In this document: piece by piece, positions 2,231 through 49,545 of the stretch
Position numbering within the stretch: position 1 is the first letter of the stretch
Layout of the letters: each line of letters opens with the position of its first letter
From: Deltaproteobacteria bacterium
GTDB taxonomy: Bacteria > Desulfobacterota > GWC2-55-46
DNA length: 64,000 nucleotides
Assembly (NCBI GenBank): GCA_016177845.1
Contig: JACOUO010000014.1
Span: forward strand, 187,005 to 251,004
Direction of reading: 5' to 3'
Notes under the pieces: model-generated
The model's input: the letters and a program-made list of their open reading frames with translations, nothing else
Database searches by the model: none
Told to the model about the DNA's origin: nothing
Position numbers and translations under genes: made by a program

Positions 2231-3613
2231 TTATAAAGTTACTTCATCCCCGTTTTGGGGCCTGTGTATCTTGAATCCGTATTGCTTCTGTATCAACTCT
2301 CCAAGCTTGTCAGCTGCTTCGTCCTCTCCGTGCACAAGGAATATCTCCGGGGAGTTGGTGAAGGCGGAAAGCCATCCTATAAGCTCTTCCTGCCCTGCGT
2401 GGGCTGAAAAGCCGTTTATGGTGTAAACGGAAGACCTTACGACGACCTCTTCACCCAGCACGCTCACTGATTTTGCCCCGTCAACTATCTTTCTTCCAAG
2501 GGTGTTCTGTGCCTGATAGCCTACGAAGATGATGCTGCATTCAGACCTCCAGAGGTTGTGCTTGAGATGGTGCTTTATCCTGCCGCCTTCGCACATACCG
2601 CTTCCGGCAATCACGATGCAGCCTGAGCGGAGTTTATTGAGCTTCATCGATTCCTCAGGCGTGCGCACGAAGTGCAGTCTGACGGTAGAGTCGGAATTTT
2701 TTGTGGTGAAGTACTTTGTCGCTTCCTCATCAAAACATTCGGGGTGGGAAACATAGATTTTTGTGACCTCTTCTGCAAGAGGGCTGTCAAGATAGACATC
2801 TATCCTGTAAAGCCTGCCCTCCCTTACAAGACCGTTGAGGATGTAGAGCAGGTCCTGCGTCCTGCCCACGGCGAAAGACGGGATATAGACATTTCCGCCT
2901 TTTTTAAAGGTCATCTTTATGGCGGCGACAAGCTCATCAATCGATTCTTTTAAGGGCTTGTGCGTCCTGTTGCCGTAAGTGGACTCCATTATCACATAAT
3001 CAGCGTCATCCGGCATTGACGGGTCTTTTATTATAGGATTGCCTTTTTTACCGATATCGCCAGAAAATATTATCTTTTTTTCCTTTTCGCTGTCCTGGAA
3101 CCACAGCTCAAGGGATGCGGAGCCAAGGATATGGCCGGCATCCACAAACCTGTACTTAACCCCGCTTCCAAGGTGAAAGACCTTATTGTATTGCTTTACA
3201 TCAAACTGGGGCAGTACATTTTCAACATCCTCTCCTGTATAGAGAGGCTCCACAGGCGCAAGCCCTGAGCGCATGCTCTTCCTTGTGTTCCACTCTGCGT
3301 CAGATTCCTGTATGCTTGCTGAATCGTATAACATCGGCTCAAGCAGGTCCCTTGTGGCAGGGGTGCTGAAAATCGTGCCCTTGAAGCCCTCTTTCATCAA
3401 TTTTGGGAGCAGTCCCGAATGGTCTATGTGTGCATGCGTTACGAAGATGAAATCGATCTCCGAGGGCACGAACGGGAAGTTGTTCCTGTTCATCTCATTG
3501 GAATTGTTGCCCTGGTGCATGCCGCATTCCACAAGGATTTTAAGCTTGTTTATCTCAAGATAATAACATGAGCCGGTAACAGTGCTTGCGCCGCCTACGA
3601 ATTTCAGTTTCAA
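2231..3613 (-). CDS. MBL-fold beta-CASP ribonuclease (RNase J / CPSF73-like RNA-metabolising metallo-beta-lactamase)
   Basis: HAHIDHSGLLP metal-binding motif, the beta-lactamase fold and a beta-CASP C-terminal region. The likely start is the TTG at 3613, preceded by AAGGAG and giving MKLKFVGG. An in-frame ATG at 3661 has no RBS. Confidence 0.8.
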   Translation of the reverse strand: MKLKFVGGASTVTGSCYYLEINKLKILVECGMHQGNNSNEMNRNNFPFVPSEIDFIFVTHAHIDHSGLLPKLMKEGFKGTIFSTPATRDLLEPMLYDSASIQESDAEWNTRKSMRSGLAPVEPLYTGEDVENVLPQFDVKQYNKVFHLGSGVKYRFVDAGHILGSASLELWFQDSEKEKKIIFSGDIGKKGNPIIKDPSMPDDADYVIMESTYGNRTHKPLKESIDELVAAIKMTFKKGGNVYIPSFAVGRTQDLLYILNGLVREGRLYRIDVYLDSPLAEEVTKIYVSHPECFDEEATKYFTTKNSDSTVRLHFVRTPEESMKLNKLRSGCIVIAGSGMCEGGRIKHHLKHNLWRSECSIIFVGYQAQNTLGRKIVDGAKSVSVLGEEVVVRSSVYTINGFSAHAGQEELIGWLSAFTNSPEIFLVHGEDEAADKLGELIQKQYGFKIHRPQNGDEVTL

Positions 3614-3828
3614 TTCGGGTCTCCTTGAAAGAGTATTCAATTGGGAAAAACAGTTTATCATAATGAGTTAGAAATTCAAAAAGGTAAAAACTTTAAATAA
3701 TTCAACATATTGCGACAAATTTGCCCCTTGCGGAGTTGACTGGATCCGAAATTGGTGTCCTAATTTATATAGGATTTCAGAAAATATAGATTTTTCGGTC
3801 TATCTGCCCGAAAGAGGAGGCTCGGTCG

Positions 3829-4017
3829 ATGTTGATGGAAGATGTCAGGGAAAAAGCTAAAACACTTGGAATCAAGACAGCAAGAAGGAAAAAAAACGAT
3901 TTGATCCGTGAGATACAGGCTGCGGAGGGCAACTTCCCATGCTTTGGCACTGCAACAGATTATTGTGACCAGTTTGAGTGCTGTTTCAGGGGTGACTGTT
4001 TAAACCCTGAGAATTAG
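3829..4017 (+). CDS. small protein: Rho-termination-factor-N-like (SAP-like) helix-hairpin followed by a Cys-rich tail
   Basis: Strong GAGGAGG RBS 8 nt upstream of the ATG. The N-terminus KAKTLGIKTARRKKNDLIREI resembles the Rho_N domain. The C-terminus CFGTATDYCDQFECCFRGDC has five Cys in 20 residues. Confidence 0.55.
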   Translation: MLMEDVREKAKTLGIKTARRKKNDLIREIQAAEGNFPCFGTATDYCDQFECCFRGDCLNPEN

Positions 4018-4200
4018 CAGGAAAGCTATTCCTTTATTTAACTCTGCAAGCGCGGCATTCGGCGGGCTTTTAATATTCATTAATATCCTTGCCCGATTCT
4101 CCGGGCCGCGCCAAGAAAATCCCTTTTCATAAGAAGAGGGATAGGGGCTCTCAGGCAGCCTTTTGTACCTGAGGGAAATAGAAAAATAAAGGAGGTTGCC

Positions 4201-4359
4201 ATGCCTACAGATCCTGTATGCAAAATGGAAATTGACAGGGAAGATGCTGAAGCGGAAGTTCAGTATCAGGGGAATAAGTATTATTTCTGCAGCGAAGAGT
4301 GCAAGGAAAGCTTCGACAGAAACCCTGAGCAGTATATCAGGAAGAGGAAGACTGCTTGA
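4201..4359 (+). CDS. YHS/TRASH-domain metal-binding protein (52 aa; below the ORF-track cutoff)
   Basis: AAGGAGG RBS 6 nt upstream of the ATG at 4201. The protein MPTDPVCKMEIDREDAEAEVQYQGNKYYFCSEECKESFDRNPEQY matches the YHS-domain pattern (PVCxM...YYFCSxxC). Confidence 0.7.
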   Translation: MPTDPVCKMEIDREDAEAEVQYQGNKYYFCSEECKESFDRNPEQYIRKRKTA

Positions 4360-4381
4360 TCAAGCGGCAAGATAAGCATTG

Positions 4382-4423
4382 AAAAAAAAGCCGGGTAAGG
4401 TAAAACCTTACCCGGCTTTTTTT
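4382..4423. terminator. bidirectional rho-independent terminator between convergent genes
   Basis: aaaaaaaag-GCCGGGTAAGG-taaaa-CCTTACCCGGC-ttttttt. A perfect 11-bp stem is flanked by an A-run on one side and a T-run on the other. Confidence 0.8.
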
Positions 4424-4473
4424 AGTTATATCACCGGATTGCGATAAGTGCTCCTGAGGAAAGTCCGAAGATA

Positions 4474-4953
4474 CTACACCGCATCAACGCTTTTTATCTC
4501 AGGCGCCGCTTTTTTAACAGCGGTCTCGACCCCAGCCTTAAGGGTCATACCGGCAGAAGGACAGCCTCCGCACGCACCCACGAGCCGCACCTTCACGGTT
4601 TTTTCAACATCATCTATATCCACAAGCTCTACATCTCCGCCGTCAGCCTGCAGAAAGGGCCTTACTTCATCAAGAGCGGCCTGAACCTTTCTCCTGAGCT
4701 CTTCTCCTGATGCCTCGGCCAATTTCAGTTTTGTGATATTTACAATCCAGTCAGGACCCTTGCTCACATATTCCCATGTATAAGTGTCCTTGAACTCGCC
4801 TTCAAACTGGTAATGCAGGGGCTTGGGGTCATGGTCATTTATAAGCTGGAGGACCTGTTCGGCTTCCATCCCGTCCCATGTGTCAAATATCCTCGGATGC
4901 CTTTCAAATACCGGTATTTCCCTCAGATCCAGCGTAATTATCTTCTCAGACAT
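4474..4953 (-). CDS. DUF2249 domain fused to an Nfu/NifU-C-type Fe-S domain
   Basis: The ATG at 4953 is preceded by GGAGG. The N-terminal half (LDLREIPVFERHPRIFDTW...) matches the DUF2249 pattern. The C-terminal half (VELVDIDDVEKTVKVRLVGACGGCPSAGMTLK) is the Nfu-type CxxC domain. Confidence 0.75.
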   Translation of the reverse strand: MSEKIITLDLREIPVFERHPRIFDTWDGMEAEQVLQLINDHDPKPLHYQFEGEFKDTYTWEYVSKGPDWIVNITKLKLAEASGEELRRKVQAALDEVRPFLQADGGDVELVDIDDVEKTVKVRLVGACGGCPSAGMTLKAGVETAVKKAAPEIKSVDAV

Positions 4954-5067: not shown

Positions 5068-6468
5068 TCAGGCGATTAGCCCTTCGATGGGGATACCGAA
5101 GGCTTCGGGGCCTTTTGCTCCGATAATAGACCTTGACGGGTCGTTTACAAGATCAAGCTCAAAGGGGCTTTCCAAAGATTTTTTATCTTTTCCGCATACT
5201 ATCAGGAGCATTGGCTGGAGCGGATAAGCCCTGTTGAGCATCTTAACAATGCCGACTTCGCCCGTATTGAGCTCAACAAGGGCGCCTATAGGGTAAATTC
5301 CAAGGCATTTTATAAGCCTCTCCACAATTTCCGGGTCAAGGTGCGTCTCCCGCATAAGGTAGATTTTTTTAAGGGCATCTTCAGGTAGTATCCCGTTTTG
5401 ATAGACCCTGTTGCTTGTCATCGCGTCATAGACATCGGCAACTGCCGCAATACGGGCAAACTTATGTATTTCAGTGCCCGGTATGTGGTACTGGTATCCG
5501 CTTCCGTCGTATCTTTCATGGTGCTGCAGCGGCACAAACCTTGAACTGTCGTTTATATCCTTGGTTTTAAAGAGGATTTCAGCCCCGAAGTCAGTATGGC
5601 GTTTTATCTCCTCAAATTCATTCTCTGTGAGCCGGCCGGGCTTTTTGAGTATCATCTCAGGCACGAGCATCTTTCCTATGTCATGGAGTATCGCTCCGAC
5701 CCCGAGATTATGCAGTTCATCCTTGGACAGTCCCATGCTCCTGCCAAGGGTTACGGAAAGTATGCAGACATTGACCGAATGGGCAAAGGTATAATCATCA
5801 AAGCTTTTCAGACGGGAAAGGGTTGTAAGCGCGTCCTGGTTCCTGAAGATGCTGTCAACCATTTTGCCGACGCTATTATGGACTTTATCCGTTTTGATGT
5901 CCCCGCCGAGCTTTACAGCGGTTAAGAACTCTCTGGCAAGGCCTTCAGCCTCGTTTCTAATCTTTTTGGCCTCTCTCAGCTCTTCCTTATATTCTTCCCT
6001 CTGTTCTGCTATCGACTTTTCAGCAGATAATTCAGGCTTGCCCTCTTCAGGTTCAGCATATACTATCGGTGAGGGGTTTTCTGTCTCTGAAATTTCCTCG
6101 ACAGCCTCTGTGTCGATTACAGCAGCTTCGACTTCATTTTCGGATACTTCCTCAACAGGGCTCAACTCAACTTCAGCCTCTTCCACTGCTTCGCCTGCCT
6201 CTTCGAGAACCTCTGCGGCAGGTTCAGGTTTTGGGGGAGTGAACTCAACGACTTCGGCCTTTTTAACTGCTCTCAGAATAACAGGCGGCTTGGCTGCCTC
6301 CATATCAATATGGGCATACCTGTACCCGTCCCTTTTGAAGCGTTCAATGTCCTCAGAGCTCTTGATTTTGATATTATTCATGAAAAATATGCCTGCGGAG
6401 CCTTCTTTTTCAAGGCCGCTGACATACATCCCGATCTCAAGCTCGTCTATGGCAATCTTTTTAATCAT
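5068..6468 (-). CDS. HD-GYP domain cyclic-di-GMP phosphodiesterase with a DUF3391-like N-terminus and a Glu-rich linker
   Basis: HDIGKMLVP ... HHERYDGSGY(Q) HD-GYP signature. The start is taken as the ATG at 6468 (MIKKIAIDEL). The ORF-track start at 6501 is TTG without an RBS. Confidence 0.8.
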   Translation of the reverse strand: MIKKIAIDELEIGMYVSGLEKEGSAGIFFMNNIKIKSSEDIERFKRDGYRYAHIDMEAAKPPVILRAVKKAEVVEFTPPKPEPAAEVLEEAGEAVEEAEVELSPVEEVSENEVEAAVIDTEAVEEISETENPSPIVYAEPEEGKPELSAEKSIAEQREEYKEELREAKKIRNEAEGLAREFLTAVKLGGDIKTDKVHNSVGKMVDSIFRNQDALTTLSRLKSFDDYTFAHSVNVCILSVTLGRSMGLSKDELHNLGVGAILHDIGKMLVPEMILKKPGRLTENEFEEIKRHTDFGAEILFKTKDINDSSRFVPLQHHERYDGSGYQYHIPGTEIHKFARIAAVADVYDAMTSNRVYQNGILPEDALKKIYLMRETHLDPEIVERLIKCLGIYPIGALVELNTGEVGIVKMLNRAYPLQPMLLIVCGKDKKSLESPFELDLVNDPSRSIIGAKGPEAFGIPIEGLIA

Positions 6469-6666
6469 ATGTACTCTTTCAGGACTATTTCGAAAATACA
6501 ACGCATATAGACTAATCGGCAGAAACTGACTAAAACTTTAGTTTAAAAAAGTAAAGGAAAAACAAAGGGTTCCGTGCAGGTGAATTGACATAATCGAGAA
6601 CCGGACTATACTCAAAAATATGCCGGAAGAGGATAGTGTTTTGCCCTAAGGAAAGGAGAAGGAACT

Positions 6667-6957
6667 ATGGCTATAAACATGCCTAAGATATTAAGCTGTA
6701 CTGTTACGGAATGCGCCTATAACATAAAAAACGAATGCCACACAATGGCCATCACCGTAGGCGACGGAGGCCATGCCGCATGTGATACTTATTACAGGGC
6801 ACCGAACAAAGGCGGGGCGGACATCATTGGAGGAGTGGGCGCATGCAAGGCGCATGAATGCAAGTACAACAAGCTTTATGAATGTTTTGCTCCGGGTATC
6901 ACGGTTGCGCACCACAGCGAGCATGCAGACTGCAAGACCTTTACTCCCAGAGGTTAA
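6667..6957 (+). CDS. DUF1540 domain Cys-rich protein
   Basis: GGAAAGGAGAAGG RBS. Repeated CxY/HxC pattern (SCTVTECAYNIKNECHT ... GACKAHECKYNKLYEC) typical of DUF1540. Confidence 0.7.
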   Translation: MAINMPKILSCTVTECAYNIKNECHTMAITVGDGGHAACDTYYRAPNKGGADIIGGVGACKAHECKYNKLYECFAPGITVAHHSEHADCKTFTPRG

Positions 6958-7079
6958 TCTTACATGCCGTCTGACAAGGAACATTGTAAAAAAATCAGCT
7001 ATCCTCCTTCCGGCATCTTTAATCACTCAGAACCAGAAACTCTTTAAGTCTGTTTTTCGTGCACTAAGAAAGGGGTTGC

Positions 7080-7463
7080 ATGGATTATCAGAACTTCATC
7101 AGGGAAGTCAACAGGCTTGGTTTTATCAGGGCTAATCCTGTGAAAGCTGATGCCGGGGTGAAGGCTGTACTTGGTATTCTCGCAAGCATGATGGAAGAGC
7201 CTGATGCCAGACAGCTTACCGAAAGGCTTCCTGAGCCGTTGACTTTTGAAAAGCTATACGGACATCAGGCCAATATCAAAAGGATATCAGCGGACCAATA
7301 CATAGAAGAGATAAGGGAGCAGCTTAATCTGAAGTCTGATGAGGCAAGGGAATTCATAAGAACTGTTTTACATATTACAAGAGAGATGCTTGGGAACGGC
7401 CTTCTGATAGAGCTTGGGAAAAAGCTTCCGTCTGACTGGAAAGAGATTATATTGAGCTCCTGA
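7080..7463 (+). CDS. DUF2267 domain protein
   Basis: The two-repeat architecture and conserved motifs of DUF2267 (FIREV..., EKLYGHQ...). It follows the DUF1540 gene in the same orientation. Confidence 0.65.
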   Translation: MDYQNFIREVNRLGFIRANPVKADAGVKAVLGILASMMEEPDARQLTERLPEPLTFEKLYGHQANIKRISADQYIEEIREQLNLKSDEAREFIRTVLHITREMLGNGLLIELGKKLPSDWKEIILSS

Positions 7464-7505
7464 CCTTCCTTTTATCAGTAAACTTTTTTTTGACAAGACC
7501 TTGGG

Positions 7506-8312
7506 ATGGGTGATATAGGAAGGACTATGGAGAGGATTATCACCCTTACAACTGATTTCGGCCTTAAAGACCCTTACCAGGGTGCAATGAAAGGGGCCGT
7601 CCTTTCAATAAATCCTAAAGCAAAACTAATCGACATAACACACCTTGTCTCGCCCGGAAATATCCTTGAGGGCGCGCTTATACTCCTTGACGCGTATGAA
7701 TTTTTCCCTGAAGGCGTCATTCACGCGGGGGTAGTTGACCCGGGTGTCGGAGGCGCGCGCAAACCCATTCTTATTGAGACAAAAAGGCATTTTTTCATCG
7801 GGCCTGACAATGGGCTTTTCAGCCTTATAGCTCAAAGGGAAGAGGTCAGGCGAGTAGTCCATCTCACCAATCAAAAATATTTCCGTAAAGATATCAGCGC
7901 CACCTTTCACGGAAGGGACATCTTCGGTCCTGTTGCCGCCCATCTAAGCCTTGGGGTTGACCCTGCCTTATTCGGGGAGGAGATAAAATCCCTGCAATCA
8001 ATAGAGATGCCTCAGCCCGTAAAAGAAGGCGGGCAGATAATTGGAGAGGTCATCTATGTGGACTCCTTCGGCAATCTTCTTACCAATATCAAAAGGTCTG
8101 ATATCTTGTCGTGTGGGGAAAATATTGAGGTCTCCATAAAAGGAGTCAGTTTAAAAGGCATACGGAATACTTACAGTTCGGCTGAAAAGGGGGCGGTAAT
8201 TGCATTGATAAGCAGTTCAAACCATCTTGAAATAGCAGTAAATTCAGGCATGGCCTCAAAGATAATTGGGGCTGAAGTCGGCGAAAGGGTTTTGGTCAAG
8301 GTAAGCAGATGA
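7506..8312 (+). CDS. SAM hydroxide adenosyltransferase family protein (DUF62; chlorinase/fluorinase-like)
   Basis: The N-terminal LTTDFGLKDPYQGAMKG and DxxHLVSPGN motifs are typical of the SAM hydroxide adenosyltransferase family. The stop overlaps the dtd start (ATGA). Confidence 0.8.
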   Translation: MGDIGRTMERIITLTTDFGLKDPYQGAMKGAVLSINPKAKLIDITHLVSPGNILEGALILLDAYEFFPEGVIHAGVVDPGVGGARKPILIETKRHFFIGPDNGLFSLIAQREEVRRVVHLTNQKYFRKDISATFHGRDIFGPVAAHLSLGVDPALFGEEIKSLQSIEMPQPVKEGGQIIGEVIYVDSFGNLLTNIKRSDILSCGENIEVSIKGVSLKGIRNTYSSAEKGAVIALISSSNHLEIAVNSGMASKIIGAEVGERVLVKVSR

Positions 8313-13385: not shown

Positions 13386-13661
13386 ATGTTTGAATTCATC
13401 AAGTCAGCTAAAGAACTTAAGAACAAACTTAATACCTACAGGCTCGTCGTAAAGGACAAGCGCACTCCCAAGGCCGCCAAGATGCTCCTTTGGCTTGCCA
13501 TAGGCTATACTGTTATGCCCTTTGACATAATCCCTGATTTCATCCCCATTATCGGGCATATTGACGACGCAATAATCGTACCTCTGCTTATCGTAATAGC
13601 TGTCAAGATGGTGCCGAATGAGGTGATGGAAGATGCGAAGAGGAAAGCAAATGGGGGTTAA
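13386..13661 (+). CDS. DUF1232 (YkvA) family small membrane protein
   Basis: 91 aa with the DIIPDFIPIIGHIDDA signature of DUF1232. Confidence 0.75.
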   Translation: MFEFIKSAKELKNKLNTYRLVVKDKRTPKAAKMLLWLAIGYTVMPFDIIPDFIPIIGHIDDAIIVPLLIVIAVKMVPNEVMEDAKRKANGG

Positions 13662-14300: not shown

Positions 14301-14439
14301 AAAAAACCTTGTTTTTATTTCTGAGTTCGCCTTAAGGAATAATAGTTGAATATACATCCTCATTTAAGCTAAAATTACGAGGAAAGTTGAACAATAAGAT
14401 TTGCGTCAAAGATTGCTGTTGCAGGTGAGCGGTTATATA

Positions 14440-15531
14440 ATGGACGACCAGAAAAGGACAATCCTTATCATTGACGACGAAGAGCCTATCCGAAAGGTTC
14501 TCAACACCCATCTGACAAAAGAGGGTTTCAATATCATCCTTTCAGCCGGCGGCAGCGGCATTTTCGACACACTCTCCCAAAACTCCTATGACCTTGTGAT
14601 CTGCGACATAACAATGCCTGAGGTAAGCGGCATAAGGGTCCTTGAGTATGTAAAGCAGACCTTTGAGATAGTGCCCGTAATCATGCTTACGGGACTGACC
14701 GATATAAATATAGCTATCGATGTAATGAAAAAAGGCGCCTTCGATTATCTGATGAAGCCGATAAAGAAGGACGACCTGATGAATATCATCGGCAAGGCCC
14801 TTGTGCACAGGGACCTGTTGATGAGGAACAAGGAACTTGAGCTTGAGAACAGGGAGTACCAGAACTTCCTTGAGCAGAAGGTACGCGAGCGCACAAAAGA
14901 ACTGAACGCAAAGGCAATGGAACTTCAGAAAGCATATGGGCTTTTGAAATCCATGAATATCCAGTTCGTAAATGTCCTTGCCGAGACAATCGAAGCAAAA
15001 GACCATTATACAAGGGGCCATTGCAACCGCATGCGCCACCTTTGCGTGGAGCTGGGCGCCCTTGCCGGGCTTTCTCCCGAAGAACTTGAGATACTTGAAT
15101 ACGCCTCCCTCCTGCACGACCTCGGTAAAATCGGCGTCAACGAGGCTGTGCTAAACAAGGAGGGCCCGCTCACAGAGGAAGAATGCTGCCATATCAAAGA
15201 ACATACACTTATAGGCGAAAAGATACTTCAGGGCATTCCGCTGATGGAGTCTGTCGCTAAAATAATCGGGGCGCACCACGAGAGCTTTGACGGAGCAGGG
15301 TATCCCAGAGGCTTAAAAGGCACCGAAATACCCCTTTCCGCACGCATAATATCAGTTGCAGACCTCTTTGATGCCATGAGCAGCGACAGGCCTTACAGAA
15401 AGGGACTGCCGCTCGATGTCGTGCTGGAAGAAATGAGGCGGGTGTCAGGCACTCAGCTTGACCCCGAGATAGTGGAAATTTTCATCTCCAACAGGGTCCA
15501 TCTCCTTCAGAAAGAGACTGAACTTAAATAA
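14440..15531 (+). CDS. response regulator: receiver domain + HD-GYP domain (RpfG-like)
   Basis: ATG at 14440 giving MDDQKRTILIIDDEE, with the REC phospho-acceptor D. The C-terminal half has HDLGKIGV ... HHESFDGAGYP, the HD-GYP signature. The ORF-track start at 14401 is TTG. Confidence 0.85.
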   Translation: MDDQKRTILIIDDEEPIRKVLNTHLTKEGFNIILSAGGSGIFDTLSQNSYDLVICDITMPEVSGIRVLEYVKQTFEIVPVIMLTGLTDINIAIDVMKKGAFDYLMKPIKKDDLMNIIGKALVHRDLLMRNKELELENREYQNFLEQKVRERTKELNAKAMELQKAYGLLKSMNIQFVNVLAETIEAKDHYTRGHCNRMRHLCVELGALAGLSPEELEILEYASLLHDLGKIGVNEAVLNKEGPLTEEECCHIKEHTLIGEKILQGIPLMESVAKIIGAHHESFDGAGYPRGLKGTEIPLSARIISVADLFDAMSSDRPYRKGLPLDVVLEEMRRVSGTQLDPEIVEIFISNRVHLLQKETELK

Positions 15532-15641
15532 CCTGAACCCCCAAAGAAATTTATGGATTACCTTCCCATGCAAGAGTGTTTTCTGAGTAACTGCCCTTCA
15601 GCCCATTCAGATGCTTTAAGCAAAGGAGGCATCTCCCTCCC

Positions 15642-17441
15642 ATGATTAAAGTAAGGTCAACGCTCAATTACCTCGTTGTCACGATAATCATCTTTATGAT
15701 ATCGGTGACCTCGATATTCATCTATACAAGCGTACATCTTAAAAAAAAGGTAATCTTCCGCATAGTTCAGCAAACAGAGCTCATCTCTGACCTCATCACC
15801 CGTTCTTCAATGGACTTGCTGGCCGACGAGGGCCATGATAAGGCCGATTATGAAACGGTGCTTGCCTATGGAAACCAGATAGGCATTGATGATATAGGCA
15901 TATTCAGGCTTGACGGAAGTGAGTCTACATTTGAGAACGGCACCAAGGCTAAGGAGATAGGGCAGGCACAGGCACAACCGTCCCGTAAGATAAGCGTAAG
16001 CGAAAGAAACGCATTTTTCAAGGCTGTCGAGACCATGAACACGATAGGCGTCTTTGACACCGAAAACAAGATGTATGTTCGATATGTCCCGCTTAAGGCG
16101 GAATCTGCCTGCATTTCATGCCATCGCACGGAAGGCGAGGTATTGGCTGTCCTTAAAATAAAATTATTTACGGGAACAGATATCGAGCTGTTGGAATATT
16201 TGCAGAAGCTTATCTGGACACTCGGGCTTATCGTATTTCTGCCGGTTGGGGCGCTGCTTATATCGGGCGCGGTCATCAGGGAGAAGAACAGGCTCTTTTC
16301 CCAGCTTAAGAACAGCAACCTTAATCTCATAAAGACATATAACGACCTCAATGAGACAGAATACTACCTTCAGATGATACTTGACAACTCAAGGGTCATC
16401 ATCATCACAACCGATACGCAGGGCCGCATAGTGGAGTTCAATAAGGAGGCCGAAAACCTCCTTGAGTACGCCAAGGAAGAGGTTGTTGGCAAAGATGTCC
16501 TTATGCTCTATGATACCCCTCAGGAGCGCCATGAGCCAATAAGTAACGGAAAGGCAATAAACGGCGAGGTATGGGAGGTAAGGAACAGGGAGGTCGTGAT
16601 GAAGTCTAAATCGGGAAAGGCCATCCACATAAGCCTTACGCTTTCTACTATGGTAAATGACCAGGGCAGGATAATCGGAACAGTCGGAGTAGGCAAGGAC
16701 ATATCAGAGCAGAAGATGCTCCATTTCAAGCTCATGCAGTCGGAGAAGCTTGCCGGCATCGGCACCCTCGCTTCGGGCATAGCGCATGAGATTAATAACC
16801 CGCTTGCCGGCATTCTCGGCATGGCTGAGGCGATAAAGGATGAGGACGACCTCAGGCTCATCAAGGAATATACCGGCGACATCATTGAGTACACACTGAA
16901 TGCCAAGGACATTGTGCGTGAGCTATCTTCGTACTCAAGGGCCGCCAACAATATGACGGAATCGATAGTCGATGTACAGGCGGTTATTGAGAACTCGCTG
17001 AGAATGGCGCGCCACTCCGCTTCTTTCAGAGATATAAAAGTGGATATGGTCCTCAGGAAAGACTGCCATATAAACGCAAACCCGGTAGAGATACAGCAGG
17101 TGTTCGTAAACCTTATTGTAAACGCCATCCACGCCATGCATGATCAGGGCACCCTTATACTTAAGTGCTGGGAGGAGGGGGCTTTTGTAAATGCGGTGGT
17201 GGAGGATACAGGACACGGCATTTCCGAAAAAAACTTAAGCCAGATATTCGACCCGTTCTTCACTACAAAGCCTGTGGGAGAAGGTACAGGGCTCGGGCTT
17301 TATGTGGTATATAAGATCATCATGAAGTACGGCGGCAATATAGATGTGGAAAGCAGGGAAGGCGTGGGCACTAAGTTTATATTGAAATTCCCTCTGGCAC
17401 TGGAAGCTGAGACTAATTTGAATCAAGGAGACCTTTTTTGA
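15642..17441 (+). CDS. sensor histidine kinase with a periplasmic c-type heme-binding (CxxCH) sensor domain and a PAS domain
   Basis: TM1 at residues ~10-30. A ~170-aa periplasmic region contains KAESACISCHRTEG (CxxCH). TM2 at ~185-207. Then a PAS domain, the HisKA H-box SGIAHEINNPLAGI, and N, G1 and G2 boxes of the HATPase domain. Confidence 0.8.
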   Translation: MIKVRSTLNYLVVTIIIFMISVTSIFIYTSVHLKKKVIFRIVQQTELISDLITRSSMDLLADEGHDKADYETVLAYGNQIGIDDIGIFRLDGSESTFENGTKAKEIGQAQAQPSRKISVSERNAFFKAVETMNTIGVFDTENKMYVRYVPLKAESACISCHRTEGEVLAVLKIKLFTGTDIELLEYLQKLIWTLGLIVFLPVGALLISGAVIREKNRLFSQLKNSNLNLIKTYNDLNETEYYLQMILDNSRVIIITTDTQGRIVEFNKEAENLLEYAKEEVVGKDVLMLYDTPQERHEPISNGKAINGEVWEVRNREVVMKSKSGKAIHISLTLSTMVNDQGRIIGTVGVGKDISEQKMLHFKLMQSEKLAGIGTLASGIAHEINNPLAGILGMAEAIKDEDDLRLIKEYTGDIIEYTLNAKDIVRELSSYSRAANNMTESIVDVQAVIENSLRMARHSASFRDIKVDMVLRKDCHINANPVEIQQVFVNLIVNAIHAMHDQGTLILKCWEEGAFVNAVVEDTGHGISEKNLSQIFDPFFTTKPVGEGTGLGLYVVYKIIMKYGGNIDVESREGVGTKFILKFPLALEAETNLNQGDLF

Positions 17442-18592
17442 TGGCCGTTCTTTTTAGAGTTCTTTCTGTTTTTCTTCTTGTTATGACCGTATTCATGTTT
17501 TCTAAACCCGCTCTGGCCGAGGAGGACCGCCTTGACCGTATAGAGAAGGAATTGGGAGAGATAAGAAAAGAGAATAATGAACTTAAGCTTCGCCTCAAGG
17601 AGATAGAGACGGATGATGAGGAGGTACGGCATAATCTTCAGAAGCTATCAAGCCTTGTCGAGGTAAGCGGTTACGCTGACGCGGAATTTTACTTCACTGA
17701 CCAGGAGAATGAGAATAATAAGTTCCGTATCCGCCATCTAAGCCTCTTCTTCTCAAAGGATATACAGAAGGAATGGAAGCTTTTCTCTGAAATAGAATAT
17801 GAGGACGCGCCTTTAATCGAATCAAGGCACACTACAGATATCTCAGACAAAGTGCAGGGAAAGCTCTTTGTGGAGCAGATGTATATCGAGTATCATCCGC
17901 AGGTAAAATGGGACATGAGGCTTGGAAGGTTCCTTACTCCGGCAGGCATCTGGAATATATATCATTATCCGCCATTTGTCCCTACTCAGGAAAGGCCCCT
18001 GATGGTGAGAAAGATATTCCCGCAGGTATGTGACGGTATTCAGCTCAGGAACTCATTTACCCTGAATGACTCGATACTTGATACCCACCTGTATATCGCT
18101 AACGGCTCAGGCAACCCGGGCCGCCTTGACAGGAACGAGAACAAGGGAATAGGGGCAAGGGTCAATGCGGATATAATCTACGGGCTTTCGGCAGGAGCCT
18201 CATATTACAGGGAAAAAGACAACCAGAACATCAACGCGGACAGCTACGGAGTGCACCTGTTATTCAACCATGCGCCCTTTAAATTCCAGACAGAATATCA
18301 GTTCAGGCATAATGCTCCTGAGAGCGCGCGCAGCTTCAATGACAAAGGGTTATACGCCCAGTTGACATATGATATAGCCAAGTGGACATTTGCCGGAAGA
18401 TGGGACTGGTATGATAGTAATGATACGGACAGCAAAAATGACCTGTTCAGATATACAGGTGCGGTAAACTATCATTTCGCGCATAATGTAGTGGGTAAAG
18501 TTGAATATAACAGGAATGAGTTCGATGACCCTGCTGTAAAGGACTATAATGAGGTCATACTTGCCATAGTAGTTGCGATTGGGGACCTTTAA
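17438..18592 (+). CDS. putative outer-membrane beta-barrel (porin-like) protein with an N-terminal coiled coil
   Basis: Signal peptide ending ALA-EE, a coiled-coil stretch, then alternating amphipathic beta-strand pattern rich in Y/F/N/G. ATGA overlap with the kinase gene. Confidence 0.5.
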   Translation: MMAVLFRVLSVFLLVMTVFMFSKPALAEEDRLDRIEKELGEIRKENNELKLRLKEIETDDEEVRHNLQKLSSLVEVSGYADAEFYFTDQENENNKFRIRHLSLFFSKDIQKEWKLFSEIEYEDAPLIESRHTTDISDKVQGKLFVEQMYIEYHPQVKWDMRLGRFLTPAGIWNIYHYPPFVPTQERPLMVRKIFPQVCDGIQLRNSFTLNDSILDTHLYIANGSGNPGRLDRNENKGIGARVNADIIYGLSAGASYYREKDNQNINADSYGVHLLFNHAPFKFQTEYQFRHNAPESARSFNDKGLYAQLTYDIAKWTFAGRWDWYDSNDTDSKNDLFRYTGAVNYHFAHNVVGKVEYNRNEFDDPAVKDYNEVILAIVVAIGDL

Positions 18593-19035
18593 TGCGTTTT
18601 AAAAAGGCAGTGTGCTTTATTCTGGCAGCTCTCTTTATCTTTGCCTCCACAGGCAAGGCAGGGGAGGTCATTGCCGTCATCGTGAATAAAGCCAATCCGA
18701 TAAACAGCATCAGCGAAGGCGAACTTAAGAAGATATATACGAATAATATCCTGAGCTGGTCTGACGGCACCGCGATAATCATCTATGAACTTTCGGTGCA
18801 GGACCCGCTTAGAAATATTTTCTCACAGAGGATACTTGAAAAAGAGGCTGAAAAGGCAGCTGAGGAGTGGGCGCACCTTAAGCTTACCAATCAGGCAAAG
18901 AATCCGCCTCTGGCGATGAAGAGCGAGGCCCTGATCATAAGAAAGATATCAAGGGAAAAGGGTGCGATAGGCTATGTTTCCCTTGCTTCGGTAAGGGGCA
19001 GCCAGCAGATTAAAATAGTATCAACCTTTGAATGA
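18592..19035 (+). CDS. periplasmic PstS-like (phosphate-binding-protein-fold) short solute-binding domain protein
   Basis: Signal peptide, then AVIVNKANPINSISEGELKKIYTNNILSWSDGT resembling the PBP-like domains often encoded next to sensor kinases. TAATG coupling with the upstream gene. Confidence 0.5.
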   Translation: MRFKKAVCFILAALFIFASTGKAGEVIAVIVNKANPINSISEGELKKIYTNNILSWSDGTAIIIYELSVQDPLRNIFSQRILEKEAEKAAEEWAHLKLTNQAKNPPLAMKSEALIIRKISREKGAIGYVSLASVRGSQQIKIVSTFE

Positions 19036-19085: not shown

Positions 19086-19406
19086 TTAAACCCCGTTATC
19101 ATAATCAAATTCATCGAGTTCCCCTACAGGCCGTTGGAATGTAAAATTGAAAGGGTCTGCGATGAGCCTTCTTGCGGTAACCTTTACGCTCCTTGTGGGT
19201 ACAGAGAAGGGCAGGCCTATTACAAAGACCCCTGTGCCAAGCGCCAGAGCTACCAGGCCAAGCGGCCTTGTGATTACAAGGTCAAACATTATTGCTGTAG
19301 ACGAGGGTTTCTCGCGTTCCGGCACGCTCGGCTGAGTCTCGGCATAGGATAGAGTCGAAGTAGCCAGAAATATCATGAGGAAAAGGACAGCAAATAATTT
19401 TTTCAT
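19086..19406 (-). CDS. hypothetical secreted/membrane protein
   Basis: 106 aa with a signal peptide (MKKLFAVLFLMIFLATSTLSYA) and one further hydrophobic segment. No recognisable family. Confidence 0.4.
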   Translation of the reverse strand: MKKLFAVLFLMIFLATSTLSYAETQPSVPEREKPSSTAIMFDLVITRPLGLVALALGTGVFVIGLPFSVPTRSVKVTARRLIADPFNFTFQRPVGELDEFDYDNGV

Positions 19407-46174: not shown

Positions 46175-48397
46175 CTAATTTGCGCAGGTCGAAACCGTAT
46201 TGCAGTTGTAAGTTGCCGTAACTCCGATAAAGTTTGTGAAGTTATAATTGCAGACCTTATCTGTGGCCGGTGTCACGGACCTGAAGTTCATCTCTACGCC
46301 CGTAGATGTAGTGGCCCGCTTGTGTGATTCCACGCAAGCGCCGTTCATGAGCCTGTAGCCGAGCGGGTCAGAGCCCGCAAGCGCGCCTGCAGCGGCATTG
46401 CTTCCGTGAACGCCCTTCATGACATTATTTATAGAGTCATAGCTTCCGCCATGGCATGAGAGGCAGAGTATGCCGAATTTGTTGCTGTTATTGCCTGTGT
46501 TGGACCCTGCGGTATAGAAAGGCGAACTTGTGCCAAGCCCGTCAACAGGGTGCGGAACCCTTGAGAAGTTGGCGTTCGGGCCGACATAGCCTTCATCTCC
46601 GTAGACATCTCTTCTGTGGCAGTTATAGCAGAAGTTGACAAGCGAGCCTGAGCCGGTCTGGTTCTTGTTAAGTATCCACTTCTGGTCTGAACCATGCGCG
46701 CCTTTAGGGTCGGCTGTAACGCTTGAAGAATGGCAGTCAGTGCAGGTCGAGGTGCTGTCATGCGTTACATTGAAGAACCCTGTCCTCTGGCCGACACCCG
46801 GGAAGTCAACATACCTGAATGTATTTGTCAGTCCAAGGTTATTTGCAGGCCAGTTCGGATTTGCCGATACGAAAGGCTGGTTCTTGCCCTGCGCGAACAC
46901 GGGGTGGTAGCTCATGTTATTTACATTGAAGTCCGCCGTCGGGTCTGACTGCAGGACGAGCGAACCGTCCGCATTGCCTGAGGGCACGCTCGGGTTTGTA
47001 ACGCCATAAGAATAGTAGGAATGGCACTTTATGCAGAGATAACCTTCAAGGTTATCTGAGCCGGGTGTCAATGAATTGAAATCCGTTACCGTGTATGTAA
47101 GCGCCTGATTGCCTGCTGAAGGCCATGCAGAGGGCTTCACGCCCCAGCTTCCGAGCACATTCGGAGCTATGATGTTGCCATTGACGCCGCCTATGGTATG
47201 GTTGCCGGATTTTGTGGCGTGTGAGTTATGGCAATCCGCGCACTCTGCGTGCCTGTTATTGCCGAGGTTTGCCGCTGACTCCCTCGCGGGCTCGCCCGGG
47301 CTCTGCCTTGAGGCTATATGAGAGCCGTAGGTGCCTTTTATATTATGTTTGTATAAATAGCTGAACTGAGGCTCCACATCTTTTGATGTTACATTCCCGT
47401 TATGGCAGTTAAGACAGGTCCATTCCTCATCAACTGTCTGCGATGTGGCGGGGTTTATCCCTTTGAGAAGGGATTTCCCTGCTGTGCCGTTATGAGAGCG
47501 ATGGCACGCAAGGCAGCTCTGCATCTGAGGCGTATCATCTGAAAAGCCTGCTGAGCCCATGTCTTCATGCCATGGGTTTACGCCATTGCCGTTCCATGTT
47601 GCCGTAGATGTTTTATGGATTGACGGATTTGTCTCCCAGAATCTCTTTTCATGGCAGTTAAGACAGAGCACGCCGCTTTCAAGCGAGCTTACCATGAATT
47701 TGGGATAAGCTGTCCCGTGCGGGTCATGGCAGCTGGTGCACTGTATCCTTCCTGAGCTGTCAACCTTTACATTGGGCGGAAGCAGTGTGTCGGATTTTAT
47801 TTCCGGGTTTGACGGATATGCCAATGAATATTCAAATGATATAGGGTGGTCATCCTTTAAGTCCGTTCCTATGTAAGAAGTCGAGGCCGAAGTAAGCTTG
47901 CCTGCAGTGACTCCGGTGCCTGTGACAGAAAAAGTGCCTGCCAGTGTTTTACCCGGCTGATTTAGGAGTGAGCCAAGGGCGATTGTGCCGTCATGGCATG
48001 AGAGGCAAAGTTTTGATGAACCCGTGGGCTGGCCCAATGTAGGAGAGTTCGGGCTTAATGTGGCAGCCAGTGTCTGGCTTTCATATACATTATAGGTGGC
48101 TCCGGTATCCTGCTTGTTCCAGACAGGGCCTGAAGGTGCGGCATTGTGCGGTGTATGGCAGAATACGCATACTTCAGAGGTCTCTGTTGTCTTTACCGCA
48201 GCCGTAGAAAGGCTTCCGAGGTTATGCTTGGTGCCGGAAACGCTCGCCCAGAGCTGGGTGGAGGTAAATGCAATTGTAAGGCCGGCTGCCGAGACTGCCA
48301 GAGCGGCTGCCAGATGTCGTTTTGAGCAGGTACGCCTCGCAGATAAAAAAGCCTCCTTTAATTCAGAAAGGGAAGAAGGTAATTTTTTCTTTTTCAT
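46175..48397 (-). CDS. large (≥11-heme) Ser/Thr/Gly/Asn-rich multiheme c-type cytochrome, probably extracytoplasmic or cell-surface
   Basis: Eleven CxxCH motifs, many with a CxxCHxxHN extension. Low-complexity S/T/G/N-rich composition. Signal-anchor AALAVSAAGLTIAFTS. The start is taken as the ATG at 48397 (MKKKKLP). The ORF extends to a TTG at 48445. Confidence 0.8.
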   Translation of the reverse strand: MKKKKLPSSLSELKEAFLSARRTCSKRHLAAALAVSAAGLTIAFTSTQLWASVSGTKHNLGSLSTAAVKTTETSEVCVFCHTPHNAAPSGPVWNKQDTGATYNVYESQTLAATLSPNSPTLGQPTGSSKLCLSCHDGTIALGSLLNQPGKTLAGTFSVTGTGVTAGKLTSASTSYIGTDLKDDHPISFEYSLAYPSNPEIKSDTLLPPNVKVDSSGRIQCTSCHDPHGTAYPKFMVSSLESGVLCLNCHEKRFWETNPSIHKTSTATWNGNGVNPWHEDMGSAGFSDDTPQMQSCLACHRSHNGTAGKSLLKGINPATSQTVDEEWTCLNCHNGNVTSKDVEPQFSYLYKHNIKGTYGSHIASRQSPGEPARESAANLGNNRHAECADCHNSHATKSGNHTIGGVNGNIIAPNVLGSWGVKPSAWPSAGNQALTYTVTDFNSLTPGSDNLEGYLCIKCHSYYSYGVTNPSVPSGNADGSLVLQSDPTADFNVNNMSYHPVFAQGKNQPFVSANPNWPANNLGLTNTFRYVDFPGVGQRTGFFNVTHDSTSTCTDCHSSSVTADPKGAHGSDQKWILNKNQTGSGSLVNFCYNCHRRDVYGDEGYVGPNANFSRVPHPVDGLGTSSPFYTAGSNTGNNSNKFGILCLSCHGGSYDSINNVMKGVHGSNAAAGALAGSDPLGYRLMNGACVESHKRATTSTGVEMNFRSVTPATDKVCNYNFTNFIGVTATYNCNTVSTCAN

Positions 48398-48441
48398 CTT
48401 AGCACCATCCGCTGCGGCCGTATTTTTCCTGCTGGGCAATA

Positions 48442-49545
48442 TCAATTCCCGTGATATTCAAAAACCTGAACCCTTTTGTTGTAAGAATCAGCTACATAAA
48501 CTTTATCTGCGCTGTCAATATATATGCCGGAAGGGCTCCAGAACTTTCCTGCCTCCCTGCCTACTGAGCCGAAATTCAGAAGGAAATTCCCGCTCCTGTC
48601 AAATATCTGCACTGTATCAAATATGGCATCAACAATATAAATATTCCCGTCATGGTCAACGGCAACACCCTTTGGCCTGCCTAAATCGCCTGTACCGTCG
48701 CCGTGCTTGCCTATTTTAGAGACGAATTTGCCATCCTTATCGAATATCTGTATCCTGAAATTCATTGTGTCAGTAACATAGAGCTCGTTTTTATTGTCGA
48801 TGAAGAGGTCGACCGGGTAGTTGAGCTCTCCATCTTTATCGCCCAATTTGCCAATCGTATTTACGAGGCCGCCTTTCAGGTCGTATACCCCTATATTATG
48901 CGAGCCTGTATCTGACACATAAAGGAGCTTATCCTGCCTGTTAATGGCAATTCCCGTCATCCTCTTGCCCTCGCCGATACTGCGAAGGTACTGGCCCTTC
49001 GGGCTGAAGACCAGGATCTTATTAAGGACAGAGTCCGTTATATAGATATTGTCTTCGCCGTCAACAGCCGCGGAGATAGGGGATTCGAGATACCGGTTAT
49101 CGTCAAGTTCGTCTATATAGCTGTATTTGCCGTTCTTGGCGTCGTATATGTGCACCCTTTTAAAAGCGGTATCGGCAACGATTATCCTTCCGGTGGAATC
49201 CGTTACAACTCCATAGGGTTTAATTATATCCTCAGATTTTGAACCGAGGACAAATTCTGCGAGTTTCTTGAAAAAGCCTTTATTCGCGCCTATGTCCGAG
49301 GGATTCGCTATTGTCGTTGAATAAGAGATCCTTGCCGGTTCCGGAGGGGACGGCCATATTATCGGCTTTGCCGCTAATTGCCGGTCTTCTTTTATGGGCT
49401 GAGAGCCGCAACCTGAAAATGAGAATAGAAATGCGCAAAGCGCAAGTCCCATGGACAAAGATGCGATGGCGCCTTTTTGAGAATTTTTTGCCGTATTCAC
49501 CTTTTGATTTCCAGACAGAGCTTTTTGCGGCTCAAGTGTGCTCAT
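48442..49545 (-). CDS. NHL-repeat six-bladed beta-propeller lipoprotein
   Basis: Lipobox FSFSGCGS. Six repeats of the NHL pattern (e.g. YVTDTMNFRIQIFDKDGKF, GVAVDHDGNIYIVDAIFDTVQIFD). Confidence 0.8.
   Translation of the reverse strand: MSTLEPQKALSGNQKVNTAKNSQKGAIASLSMGLALCAFLFSFSGCGSQPIKEDRQLAAKPIIWPSPPEPARISYSTTIANPSDIGANKGFFKKLAEFVLGSKSEDIIKPYGVVTDSTGRIIVADTAFKRVHIYDAKNGKYSYIDELDDNRYLESPISAAVDGEDNIYITDSVLNKILVFSPKGQYLRSIGEGKRMTGIAINRQDKLLYVSDTGSHNIGVYDLKGGLVNTIGKLGDKDGELNYPVDLFIDNKNELYVTDTMNFRIQIFDKDGKFVSKIGKHGDGTGDLGRPKGVAVDHDGNIYIVDAIFDTVQIFDRSGNFLLNFGSVGREAGKFWSPSGIYIDSADKVYVADSYNKRVQVFEYHGN

Follow-up and report, generated by a model that had tools for sequence, protein, structure and literature searches.

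Within a 64,000-nucleotide (nt) stretch of Deltaproteobacteria bacterium DNA (GenBank assembly GCA_016177845.1, contig JACOUO010000014.1, positions 187,005 to 251,004 of the forward strand; the whole stretch is hereafter called the window, and positions are counted from its first letter), we describe a four-gene operon at 14440-19035 that appears to connect a periplasmic heme sensor with cyclic di-GMP (c-di-GMP) signaling. Our favored reading, to which we give a probability of roughly 0.6, is that a histidine kinase with a periplasmic heme-sensing domain controls c-di-GMP via a response regulator of the HD-GYP type, and that a porin and a single-lobe PstS-like protein encoded directly downstream are accessories dedicated to this kinase.

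The four open reading frames (ORFs) share the + strand in the order regulator, kinase, porin, and PstS-like gene. The response regulator (14440..15531; 363 amino acids, aa) carries a REC domain at aa 8-117 and an HD-GYP domain at aa 179-344, and the sensor histidine kinase (15642..17441; 599 aa) is composed of a first transmembrane helix (TM1), a periplasmic Cache-like domain with a putative heme-c site, a second transmembrane helix (TM2), and PAS, HisKA, and HATPase_c domains. They are followed by an outer-membrane porin-family protein (17441..18592; 383 aa) with a signal peptide, a coiled coil, and a beta-barrel, and by a secreted single-lobe PstS-like protein (18592..19035; 147 aa), as judged from Pfam, an AlphaFold2 model, and Foldseek. 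An earlier sequence-only reading of this DNA had proposed such a four-gene operon, and both the ORFs and their domains bear it out.

A Conserved CxxCH Motif in the Periplasmic Domain of the Kinase

Pfam places the PAS domain of the kinase at aa 243-356, HisKA at aa 375-434, and HATPase_c at aa 480-586, and the protein has exactly two hydrophobic segments, at approximately aa 6-33 and 187-214. Since the PAS-HisKA-HATPase portion behind TM2 must be cytoplasmic, the loop between the two segments is periplasmic (sensor domain, aa 34-186; 15741..16199), and so is the CISCH motif at aa 157-161 (C157, C160, and H161; 16110..16124), a candidate site of covalent heme-c attachment with its proximal histidine. 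This is the sole CxxCH in the kinase, and C157 and C160 are the only cysteines of the loop. The sequence-only reading had likewise claimed a single CISCH between two transmembrane helices, and it had named two outcomes that would count against a heme sensor, a cytoplasmic motif and a motif not conserved in orthologues. Hydrophobicity and motif search agree with its claim, and neither outcome was found, as the topology puts the motif in the periplasm and, of 28 distinct homologous sensor domains (25-57% identity to the sensor of this locus), 27 retain the CxxCH. Such conservation means that the motif is no chance occurrence. In six full-length kinases, with identity down to 46% overall and 24-28% in the sensor, C157, C160, and H161 are all invariant; across the 28 sensor sequences both cysteines are invariant, and the histidine has been lost in one lineage.

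Besides the CxxCH residues, only one His, Met, or Cys of the periplasmic domain is invariant, namely His65 (15834..15836), which lies in a Gly-His dipeptide following the first long helix. It stands in register in 27 of the 28 distinct sensors, the one exception coinciding with the loss of the CxxCH histidine, and from this pattern of conservation we infer that His65 is a candidate distal heme ligand. The supply of covalently bound heme seems assured in this organism: the - strand at 46175-48445 encodes a multiheme cytochrome c of 756 aa, in which CxxCH occurs 11 times and which has Pfam matches to Paired_CXXCH_1, Cytochrome_C7, Cytochrom_c3_2, and MtrC/MtrF-like domains, and the organism must therefore be able to mature c-type cytochromes. 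It may also be capable of electron transfer in the periplasm or outside the cell.

A Probable Divergent Branch of the Heme-Binding Cache Domains

Whether the periplasmic domain is of the PAS, Cache, or NIT type had been left by the sequence-only reading to a profile and fold comparison, and the answer, as modeled, is a Cache fold. In an AlphaFold model built with 10 sequences (predicted local distance difference test, pLDDT, 76.5), TM1 extends into a long N-terminal helix, which is followed by an alpha/beta core and by a C-terminal helix leading into TM2. A strand (144-152), a short helix (155-157), the CxxCH (157-161), and a further strand (167-176) follow one another in the model, so that the motif sits on a short helix between the last two strands. 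When this model was searched with Foldseek against 350,542 PDB chains, the heme-c sensor GSU0935 came first (E 4.5e-5), GSU0582 seventh, and Tll0287 seventeenth. A profile of the periplasmic part, run against 177,635 PDB sequences, gave the same relatives, with GSU0582 (3b47) first (E 0.0011, 121 of its 134 residues aligned) and GSU0935 (3b42) second (E 0.02). In this alignment the CxxCH of the sensor falls on the CQSCH of both structures, the segments around the motif reading 'vPlraegaClkCH' and 'VPLANEVRCQSCH'. Given the fact that thousands of CxxCH cytochromes are present in the PDB, the finding that Cache-type heme sensors take the top ranks argues for homology and not for a coincidence of motif.

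By sequence the sensor is an isolated family. A phmmer search of 1.84 billion representative proteins returned 11 matches (nine at E <= 1e-10), all from its own family except two weak ones, and a single-sequence word-index search found one homologue; the family is small, comprising about a dozen 50%-identity clusters among those representative proteins. Pfam gives sub-threshold matches to PF11845 (Tll0287-like), at 15-17 bits against a gathering threshold of 24.1, and to PF21563 (Mcp40H-20_sensor) in 5 of 10 family members, with a best E of 0.0037. The name of the latter points to the class-40H chemoreceptor sensors of Geobacter.

Recently, Tll0287, GSU0582, and GSU0935 have been united under the name "sCache_heme" (Deshpande et al., 2026; PMC12889525). 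These domains bind heme c, the family comprises thousands of proteins, kinases included, and Desulfobacterota and Nitrospirota are among the phyla in which it is enriched (PMC12889525). The view of the sequence-only reading, that heme-c sensors are known mainly from Geobacter chemoreceptors and that a kinase version is uncommon, is thus outdated, since kinases are among those thousands of proteins. An Azospira perchlorate paper that had been considered as a precedent for a heme-c kinase turned out to be irrelevant. The sensor described here has four of the features by which sCache_heme domains are recognized, namely a conserved CxxCH, an extracytoplasmic site, a single Cache fold, and a motif located in a short helical insertion between the late beta-strands, at a position homologous to that in GSU0582 and Tll0287. 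On the basis of fold, profile, and motif position, we therefore regard it as a divergent branch of the sCache_heme (DUF3365/Tll0287) family.

Near-Obligate Linkage of Kinase, Porin, and PstS-Like Gene

Homologous loci were gathered by scanning species-representative genomes with an alignment of the PstS-like protein (23 loci) and metagenomes for its invariant motif (26 loci), to which individual protein look-ups were added, giving 44 loci after removal of duplicates. The porin gene lies directly 5′ of the PstS-like gene in 38 of 39 loci, the kinase gene directly 5′ of the porin gene in 32 of 33, and a REC-HD-GYP gene 5′ of the kinase gene in 20 of 21. Wherever the PstS-like motif was matched in metagenomes (26 matches), its surroundings show the cassette arrangement as far as the contig extends. 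The sequence-only reading had suggested that the porin and PstS-like genes are attached to the two-component system and had proposed genomic co-occurrence across taxa as a check; these counts, together with the two distant loci described below, bear the suggestion out. Because the kinase-porin-PstS-like core is conserved and the regulator is variable, the accessories are to be placed with the sensor and not with the output.

In close relatives one flank of the cassette is syntenic (radical-SAM, RNase III, MiaB-like, MnmA, and NifU/NifS), and so is the other (a pyridine-nucleotide oxidoreductase and a VTT/DedA protein), which alone proves little. Two loci, L033 and L034, have wholly different flanks and keep the order kinase-porin-PstS-like, with genes that overlap or nearly abut; one is surrounded by a PEP-utilising enzyme, HDOD, phosphoribulokinase, and GidA/GidB genes, and the other by GNAT, phosphoribosyltransferase-family, Obg, and radical-SAM genes. 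Mere inherited synteny as the cause of cassette conservation is ruled out by these two loci. Moreover, in locus L003, whose sensor is just 24-28% identical, the kinase is still followed by a porin with a coiled coil. Named genomes that carry the cassette are all uncultured metagenome-assembled genomes (MAGs) labeled Deltaproteobacteria or Thermodesulfobacteriota, mostly from groundwater, save three single MAGs labeled Zetaproteobacteria (L033), Nitrospinota (L034), and Proteobacteria (L030).

Some loci contain further genes. An extra REC-only gene occurs in six of the 44 deduplicated loci; at L014, L029, L030, L031, L033, L042, and L050, a REC gene standing alone separates the HD-GYP regulator from the kinase, and L034 likewise has a REC gene of its own at 3-218. 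The locus under study has no extra REC gene in the gap between its regulator and kinase. In L033, the PstS-like gene is directly followed on its own strand by a gene for an HDOD-domain protein (6672-7694), which may be another signaling component.

The Porin and the Single-Lobe PstS-Like Protein

Pfam assigns the porin to Porin_4 (E 3.3e-12, 47.3 bits against a cut-off of 27) and Porin_O_P (PF07396; E 2.8e-11, 43.8 bits against 20.9). Its signal peptide is likely cleaved after ALA26 and is followed by a coiled coil of about 45 residues (approximately aa 29-72) and by a beta-barrel of about 300 aa, the N-terminal half of which is unusually conserved. A profile of the porin family found no OprP or OprO chain among the PDB sequences at E <= 1, and the only matches were insignificant ones to FhuA.

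The PstS-like protein has a signal peptide and matches PBP_like_2 (E 1.8e-10), covering only positions 94-198 of the 267 in the profile. Its AlphaFold2 model (pLDDT 89.7) superposes in Foldseek on about 125-130 of the 240-320 residues of PstS, the TM-score being about 0.63 for the query and 0.28-0.40 for the PstS targets. As modeled, the protein is one lobe and not a Venus flytrap, and its 147 aa fall short of the approximately 250-330 aa of a two-lobe PstS. Alignment by hidden Markov model to the Clostridium PstS structures 4q8r and 4gd5 sets their 'REDGSGT' segment against L67-S-V-Q-D71-P72-L73. We take this segment to hold the phosphate ligands of lobe II (Arg135 and Ser139-Gly140-Thr141 in E. 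coli PstS numbering), and in this alignment they are replaced in the PstS-like protein. The best NCBIfam match is TIGR02136 ("PstS family"), at 45.2 bits against a cut-off of 206.6. With the ligands replaced and this score so low, canonical phosphate binding is excluded. The fourth gene had been called a small PstS-like binding protein by the sequence-only reading; its relation to the PstS fold stands, and its standing as a full binding protein does not, while a true PstS was tried as an identity and is ruled out by the single lobe, the replaced ligands, and the sub-cut-off TIGR02136 score.

What this lobe has kept is highly constrained. The family counts 139 relatives at E <= 0.001, with 48-97% identity among the 120 matches listed, and the invariant patch W93-A-H-x-K-x-x-N-x-A-K-N-P-P106 is accompanied by R74, K110, and G-A-I-G-Y. 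Five of these invariant residues are basic, namely R74, H95, K97, K103, and K110.

Predicted Output Through an HD-GYP Regulator

Both domains of the regulator score above their Pfam cut-offs (Response_reg, E 9.5e-27, 93.8 bits; HD_5, E 2.2e-37, 128.9 bits), and it also matches Pfam HD. The HD-GYP motifs are intact, with LLHDLGK (HD at aa 226) and HHESFDGAGYP (aa 279-289), so that the protein combines a REC domain, with its phospho-acceptor Asp, and an HD-GYP domain bearing both the HD and HHExxDGxGYP motifs, as RpfG-type regulators do. Since these motifs are kept, the domain is likely to be catalytically competent, as predicted from its sequence, which agrees with the HD-GYP output that the sequence-only reading had assigned. 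On the side of the kinase, the phospho-His motif of HisKA reads H-E-I-N-N, and the enzyme is probably bifunctional, acting as both kinase and phosphatase.

Circuits in which a nitric oxide (NO)-responsive kinase acts on a REC-HD-GYP regulator do exist, as in NosP/NosK/NosR (PMC12570481). The best NCBIfam match of the regulator is indeed NF053512 ("NosR family"); the score of 235.9 bits is below the curated cut-off of 400, so membership in that family is not supported, and no gene for a FIST-domain NosP was found among the operon genes or their neighbors. For these two reasons the locus resembles NosP-NosK-NosR mechanistically and is not a member of it. A second HD-GYP protein (477 aa; DUF3391 and HD_5, without REC) is encoded at 5068-6501 (- strand), which brings the HD-GYP enzymes of this genome to at least two in a span of 10 kb.

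Proposed Mechanism and Its Alternatives

A plausible scenario for signaling can be outlined as follows. The cytochrome-c maturation machinery would attach heme to C157/C160 of a Cache-fold sensor of about 155 aa in the periplasm, where H161 would serve as the proximal heme ligand and H65 probably as the distal one. Binding of a diatomic ligand, or a change in the redox state or coordination of the heme, would then alter the Cache domain, and the signal would cross the membrane through TM2 and PAS to shift the kinase/phosphatase balance of the HisKA-HATPase part. The phosphorylation state of REC could in turn tune the c-di-GMP phosphodiesterase activity of the HD-GYP domain, the direction of this regulation being one of the parts that we infer. 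At the outer membrane, the porin would let the signal in or gate its passage, and the half-binding-protein might be a periplasmic adaptor or co-sensor that docks on the sensor domain of the kinase, on the porin, or on both. The trans-envelope sensing or uptake assembly suggested by the sequence-only reading is plausible.

Several points weigh against this scenario or limit its strength. Heme binding, which we hold to be highly probable, is a prediction drawn from sequence comparison and modeling. NO would be the likeliest heme ligand by analogy with signaling sCache_heme proteins, a tentative assignment against which the odds still lie; a membrane-bound signaling member of that family shows kinetics like those of an NO sensor and forms no stable O2 complex (PMC12889525). 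An input-side role for the two accessories is close to an even call, falling slightly short of it, and any contact of theirs with the kinase is hypothetical. The sensor scores below the curated Pfam gathering threshold for PF11845, and when 5.8 billion proteins were searched with its profile at E <= 10, the four matches were all to its own family, with no bridge to annotated PF11845 proteins. The lineage without the CxxCH histidine (L030, confirmed independently by P0007) reads CEECE in its place; in L030 (kinase at about 2921-4660) His65 is displaced as well, and the HD-GYP regulator, a REC-only gene, the kinase, the porin, and the PstS-like gene are all kept. This lineage may represent a heme-less sensor variant, as its sequence suggests, and since it keeps the whole cassette, canonical heme may be dispensable for the module. 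The linkage has its exceptions too: L031 (5763-6001) is without the porin, its PstS-like gene starting about 240 nt after the kinase; L025 (1-640) has the porin and PstS-like gene, but the 640 nt that precede them hold no kinase; and in L003 the regulator is not of the HD-GYP type, the kinase adjoining only a REC-only regulator (5584-5952). In a further locus, L060 (1-850), which was dropped from the tally as a duplicate, a truncated porin is preceded by an unrelated minus-strand ORF, and this could be a rearrangement or a misassembly.

Among the alternatives, the one that survives best takes the sensor to be a ligand-binding Cache domain, with a small anion or metabolite as the stimulus, the porin admitting it, the PstS-like lobe delivering it as binding proteins do in TorT-TorS, LuxP-LuxQ, or AioX-AioS, and the heme, if present, having a structural or a secondary, redox-gating part. 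The conserved core formed by kinase, porin, and PstS-like gene with its varying type of regulator, the membership of the porin in Porin_O_P/Porin_4, the invariant basic patch on the PstS-like lobe, and the cassette retained in the CEECE lineage would all fit, and most Cache domains are ligand binders, as the PDB matches illustrate. However, the lobe-II phosphate ligands are replaced, a lobe on its own cannot close around a ligand, conservation in the periplasmic part of the kinase is highest at the CxxCH and His65, and no ligand can be named; we consider this explanation unlikely.

Less likely again is that the CxxC acts as a thiol-disulfide or metal-binding redox switch, by which the kinase would sense periplasmic oxidative or metal stress. 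This would account for two cysteines that are the sole ones in the periplasm and that persist in 28 of 28 sequences, even where one lineage has lost the histidine. It leaves unexplained why the histidine is kept in all the others (27/28) and why 'P-L-x-x-E-x-x-C-x-x-C-H' aligns to GSU0582 and GSU0935, for which heme binding is experimental; the fold and the top structural matches are moreover those of heme-c Cache domains, and the host makes multiheme cytochromes.

An OprP/PstS-type phosphate-scavenging pair that merely shares the transcript of an unrelated two-component system can be set aside as very improbable, for the names that suggest it (Porin_O_P, PBP_like_2, and TIGR02136 as best NCBIfam match) are outweighed by the 147-aa protein with its partial profile match (94-198 of 267) and 45 bits against 206.6, by the replaced phosphate ligands, by the lack of pstCAB genes nearby, by a porin profile that detects neither OprP nor OprO in PDB sequences, and by a pair that follows the kinase in 32 of 33 loci whatever the flanks.

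The reading of a heme-sensing kinase with dedicated accessories can be carried one step further, to a porin with a periplasmic coiled-coil stalk, a heme-Cache kinase, and a free-standing PstS-like adaptor between the porin and the heme domain, all of which form one physically connected, envelope-spanning relay. We find this doubtful. If it were true, an external NO, oxyanion, or redox signal would be reported directly to c-di-GMP, and the locus would present a new accessory architecture for heme-based sensors and show how a one-lobe binding protein is used in nature.

Gene Junctions and Surroundings

Kinase, porin, and PstS-like gene overlap their neighbors by one base each. The sequence-only reading had claimed translational coupling through an ATGA at the kinase/porin junction and a TAATG at the porin/PstS-like junction; the second is confirmed, the ATG of the PstS-like gene and the porin stop codon having one base in common, and the first in fact reads TGATG (stop at 17439-17441, porin ATG at 17441). 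Regulator and kinase are separated by 110 nt, and this gap contains an AAGGAGG ribosome-binding site. Within 15620-15650, the GGAGG of the kinase can pair with a CCUCC just 5′ of the ATG to form a small hairpin; the fold of the whole intergenic region is not significant (z = -1.58). The regulator has an alternative TTG start at 14401, and alignments of its homologues start at the residue 1 that derives from the ATG.

A promoter-like site, TTGAAT-18-TAAAAT (14346..14375, + strand), lies about 65 nt 5′ of the regulator start and is weak evidence at most: the region holds 11 promoter-like sites against 9.1 ± 2.9 in shuffled sequence, which is no excess. No terminator-like site was found on the + strand within or 3′ of the operon, the scan counts being about those of shuffled sequence.

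Upstream, a DUF1232 membrane protein of 91 aa (13386-13661, + strand) has no evident link to the operon. Downstream, the product of a convergent 106-aa ORF (19086-19406, - strand) combines a signal peptide with one further hydrophobic stretch and has no match in Pfam or NCBIfam; a homologue occupies this position in most close relatives, though in neither L033 nor L034. Scans of the window (1-64000) turned up neither tRNA genes nor any Rfam family at the gathering threshold, and its remainder is of housekeeping character, including MutL, a TrpRS/TyrRS-class synthetase, ScpA, MiaA, RNase III, and a MiaB-like protein.

Significance and Comparison with Known Systems

Sensors of this type, outputs through REC-HD-GYP regulators, and the logic leading from heme to c-di-GMP are already known. 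In the searchable literature we found no description of the Pfam-invisible sensor branch or of its nearly constant association with a dedicated porin and a free-standing single-lobe PstS-like protein, and a search for porin, histidine kinase, c-di-GMP, and substrate-binding in combination returned no papers. It was not until 2026 that periplasmic heme-c Cache sensors were recognized to form a large family; the locus adds an sCache_heme branch that current Pfam models miss, hosted by uncultured groundwater and sediment bacteria of the Thermodesulfobacteriota type. If the accessories lie on the input path, they would define a route from outside the outer membrane to an inner-membrane heme sensor and on to c-di-GMP, and would show that half of a periplasmic binding protein can occur on its own in nature. 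Otherwise, the locus is one more two-component system leading from NO or redox to c-di-GMP.

The closest relatives of the sensor are the sCache_heme domains (PF11845; also GSU0582/GSU0935, PF21563), which likewise are extracytoplasmic single Cache domains with one strictly conserved CxxCH, located in a short-helix insertion before the last beta-strand, and which are likewise fused through TM helices to signaling modules including histidine kinases. The sensor of this locus differs in falling below both Pfam thresholds and in its invariant Gly-His after helix 1, and the locus differs in its porin and single-lobe PstS-like partner; the word "porin" occurs 0 times in the sCache_heme paper (PMC12889525).

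For the signaling chain as a whole, NosP-NosK-NosR and H-NOX/HnoK similarly run from a heme-based sensor through a histidine kinase to a REC-HD-GYP regulator tied to c-di-GMP, and the H-E-I-N-N phosphatase motif is common to the B. pseudomallei NosK and the kinase described here. In those systems, however, the sensor is a separate cytoplasmic FIST or H-NOX protein, whereas the heme of this locus would be covalent, of type c, periplasmic, and integral to the kinase. The B. pseudomallei NosR is degenerate (PMC12570481), whereas the HD-GYP motifs of the present regulator are intact.

As to the accessories, the OprP/OprO and PstS proteins of the Pho regulon belong to the same Pfam families, Porin_O_P and PBP_like_2; in contrast to them, the binding protein of this locus is half-sized and without the phosphate ligands, and no PstCAB is encoded nearby. 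TorT-TorS, LuxP-LuxQ, and AioX-AioS also have a secreted protein of the periplasmic-binding-protein fold that is encoded beside a membrane kinase and presumed to act on its periplasmic domain. Their binding proteins are complete two-lobe proteins with known ligands, whereas the partner in this locus is a single 147-aa lobe, with the porin gene between it and the kinase. YfiBNR (TpbB) consists of an OmpA/Pal-like lipoprotein, YfiR, and a GGDEF cyclase, with no heme, kinase, or HD-GYP. It shares with the present locus the co-encoding of outer-membrane, small periplasmic, and inner-membrane signaling proteins for the control of c-di-GMP, yet it does so with unrelated protein families.

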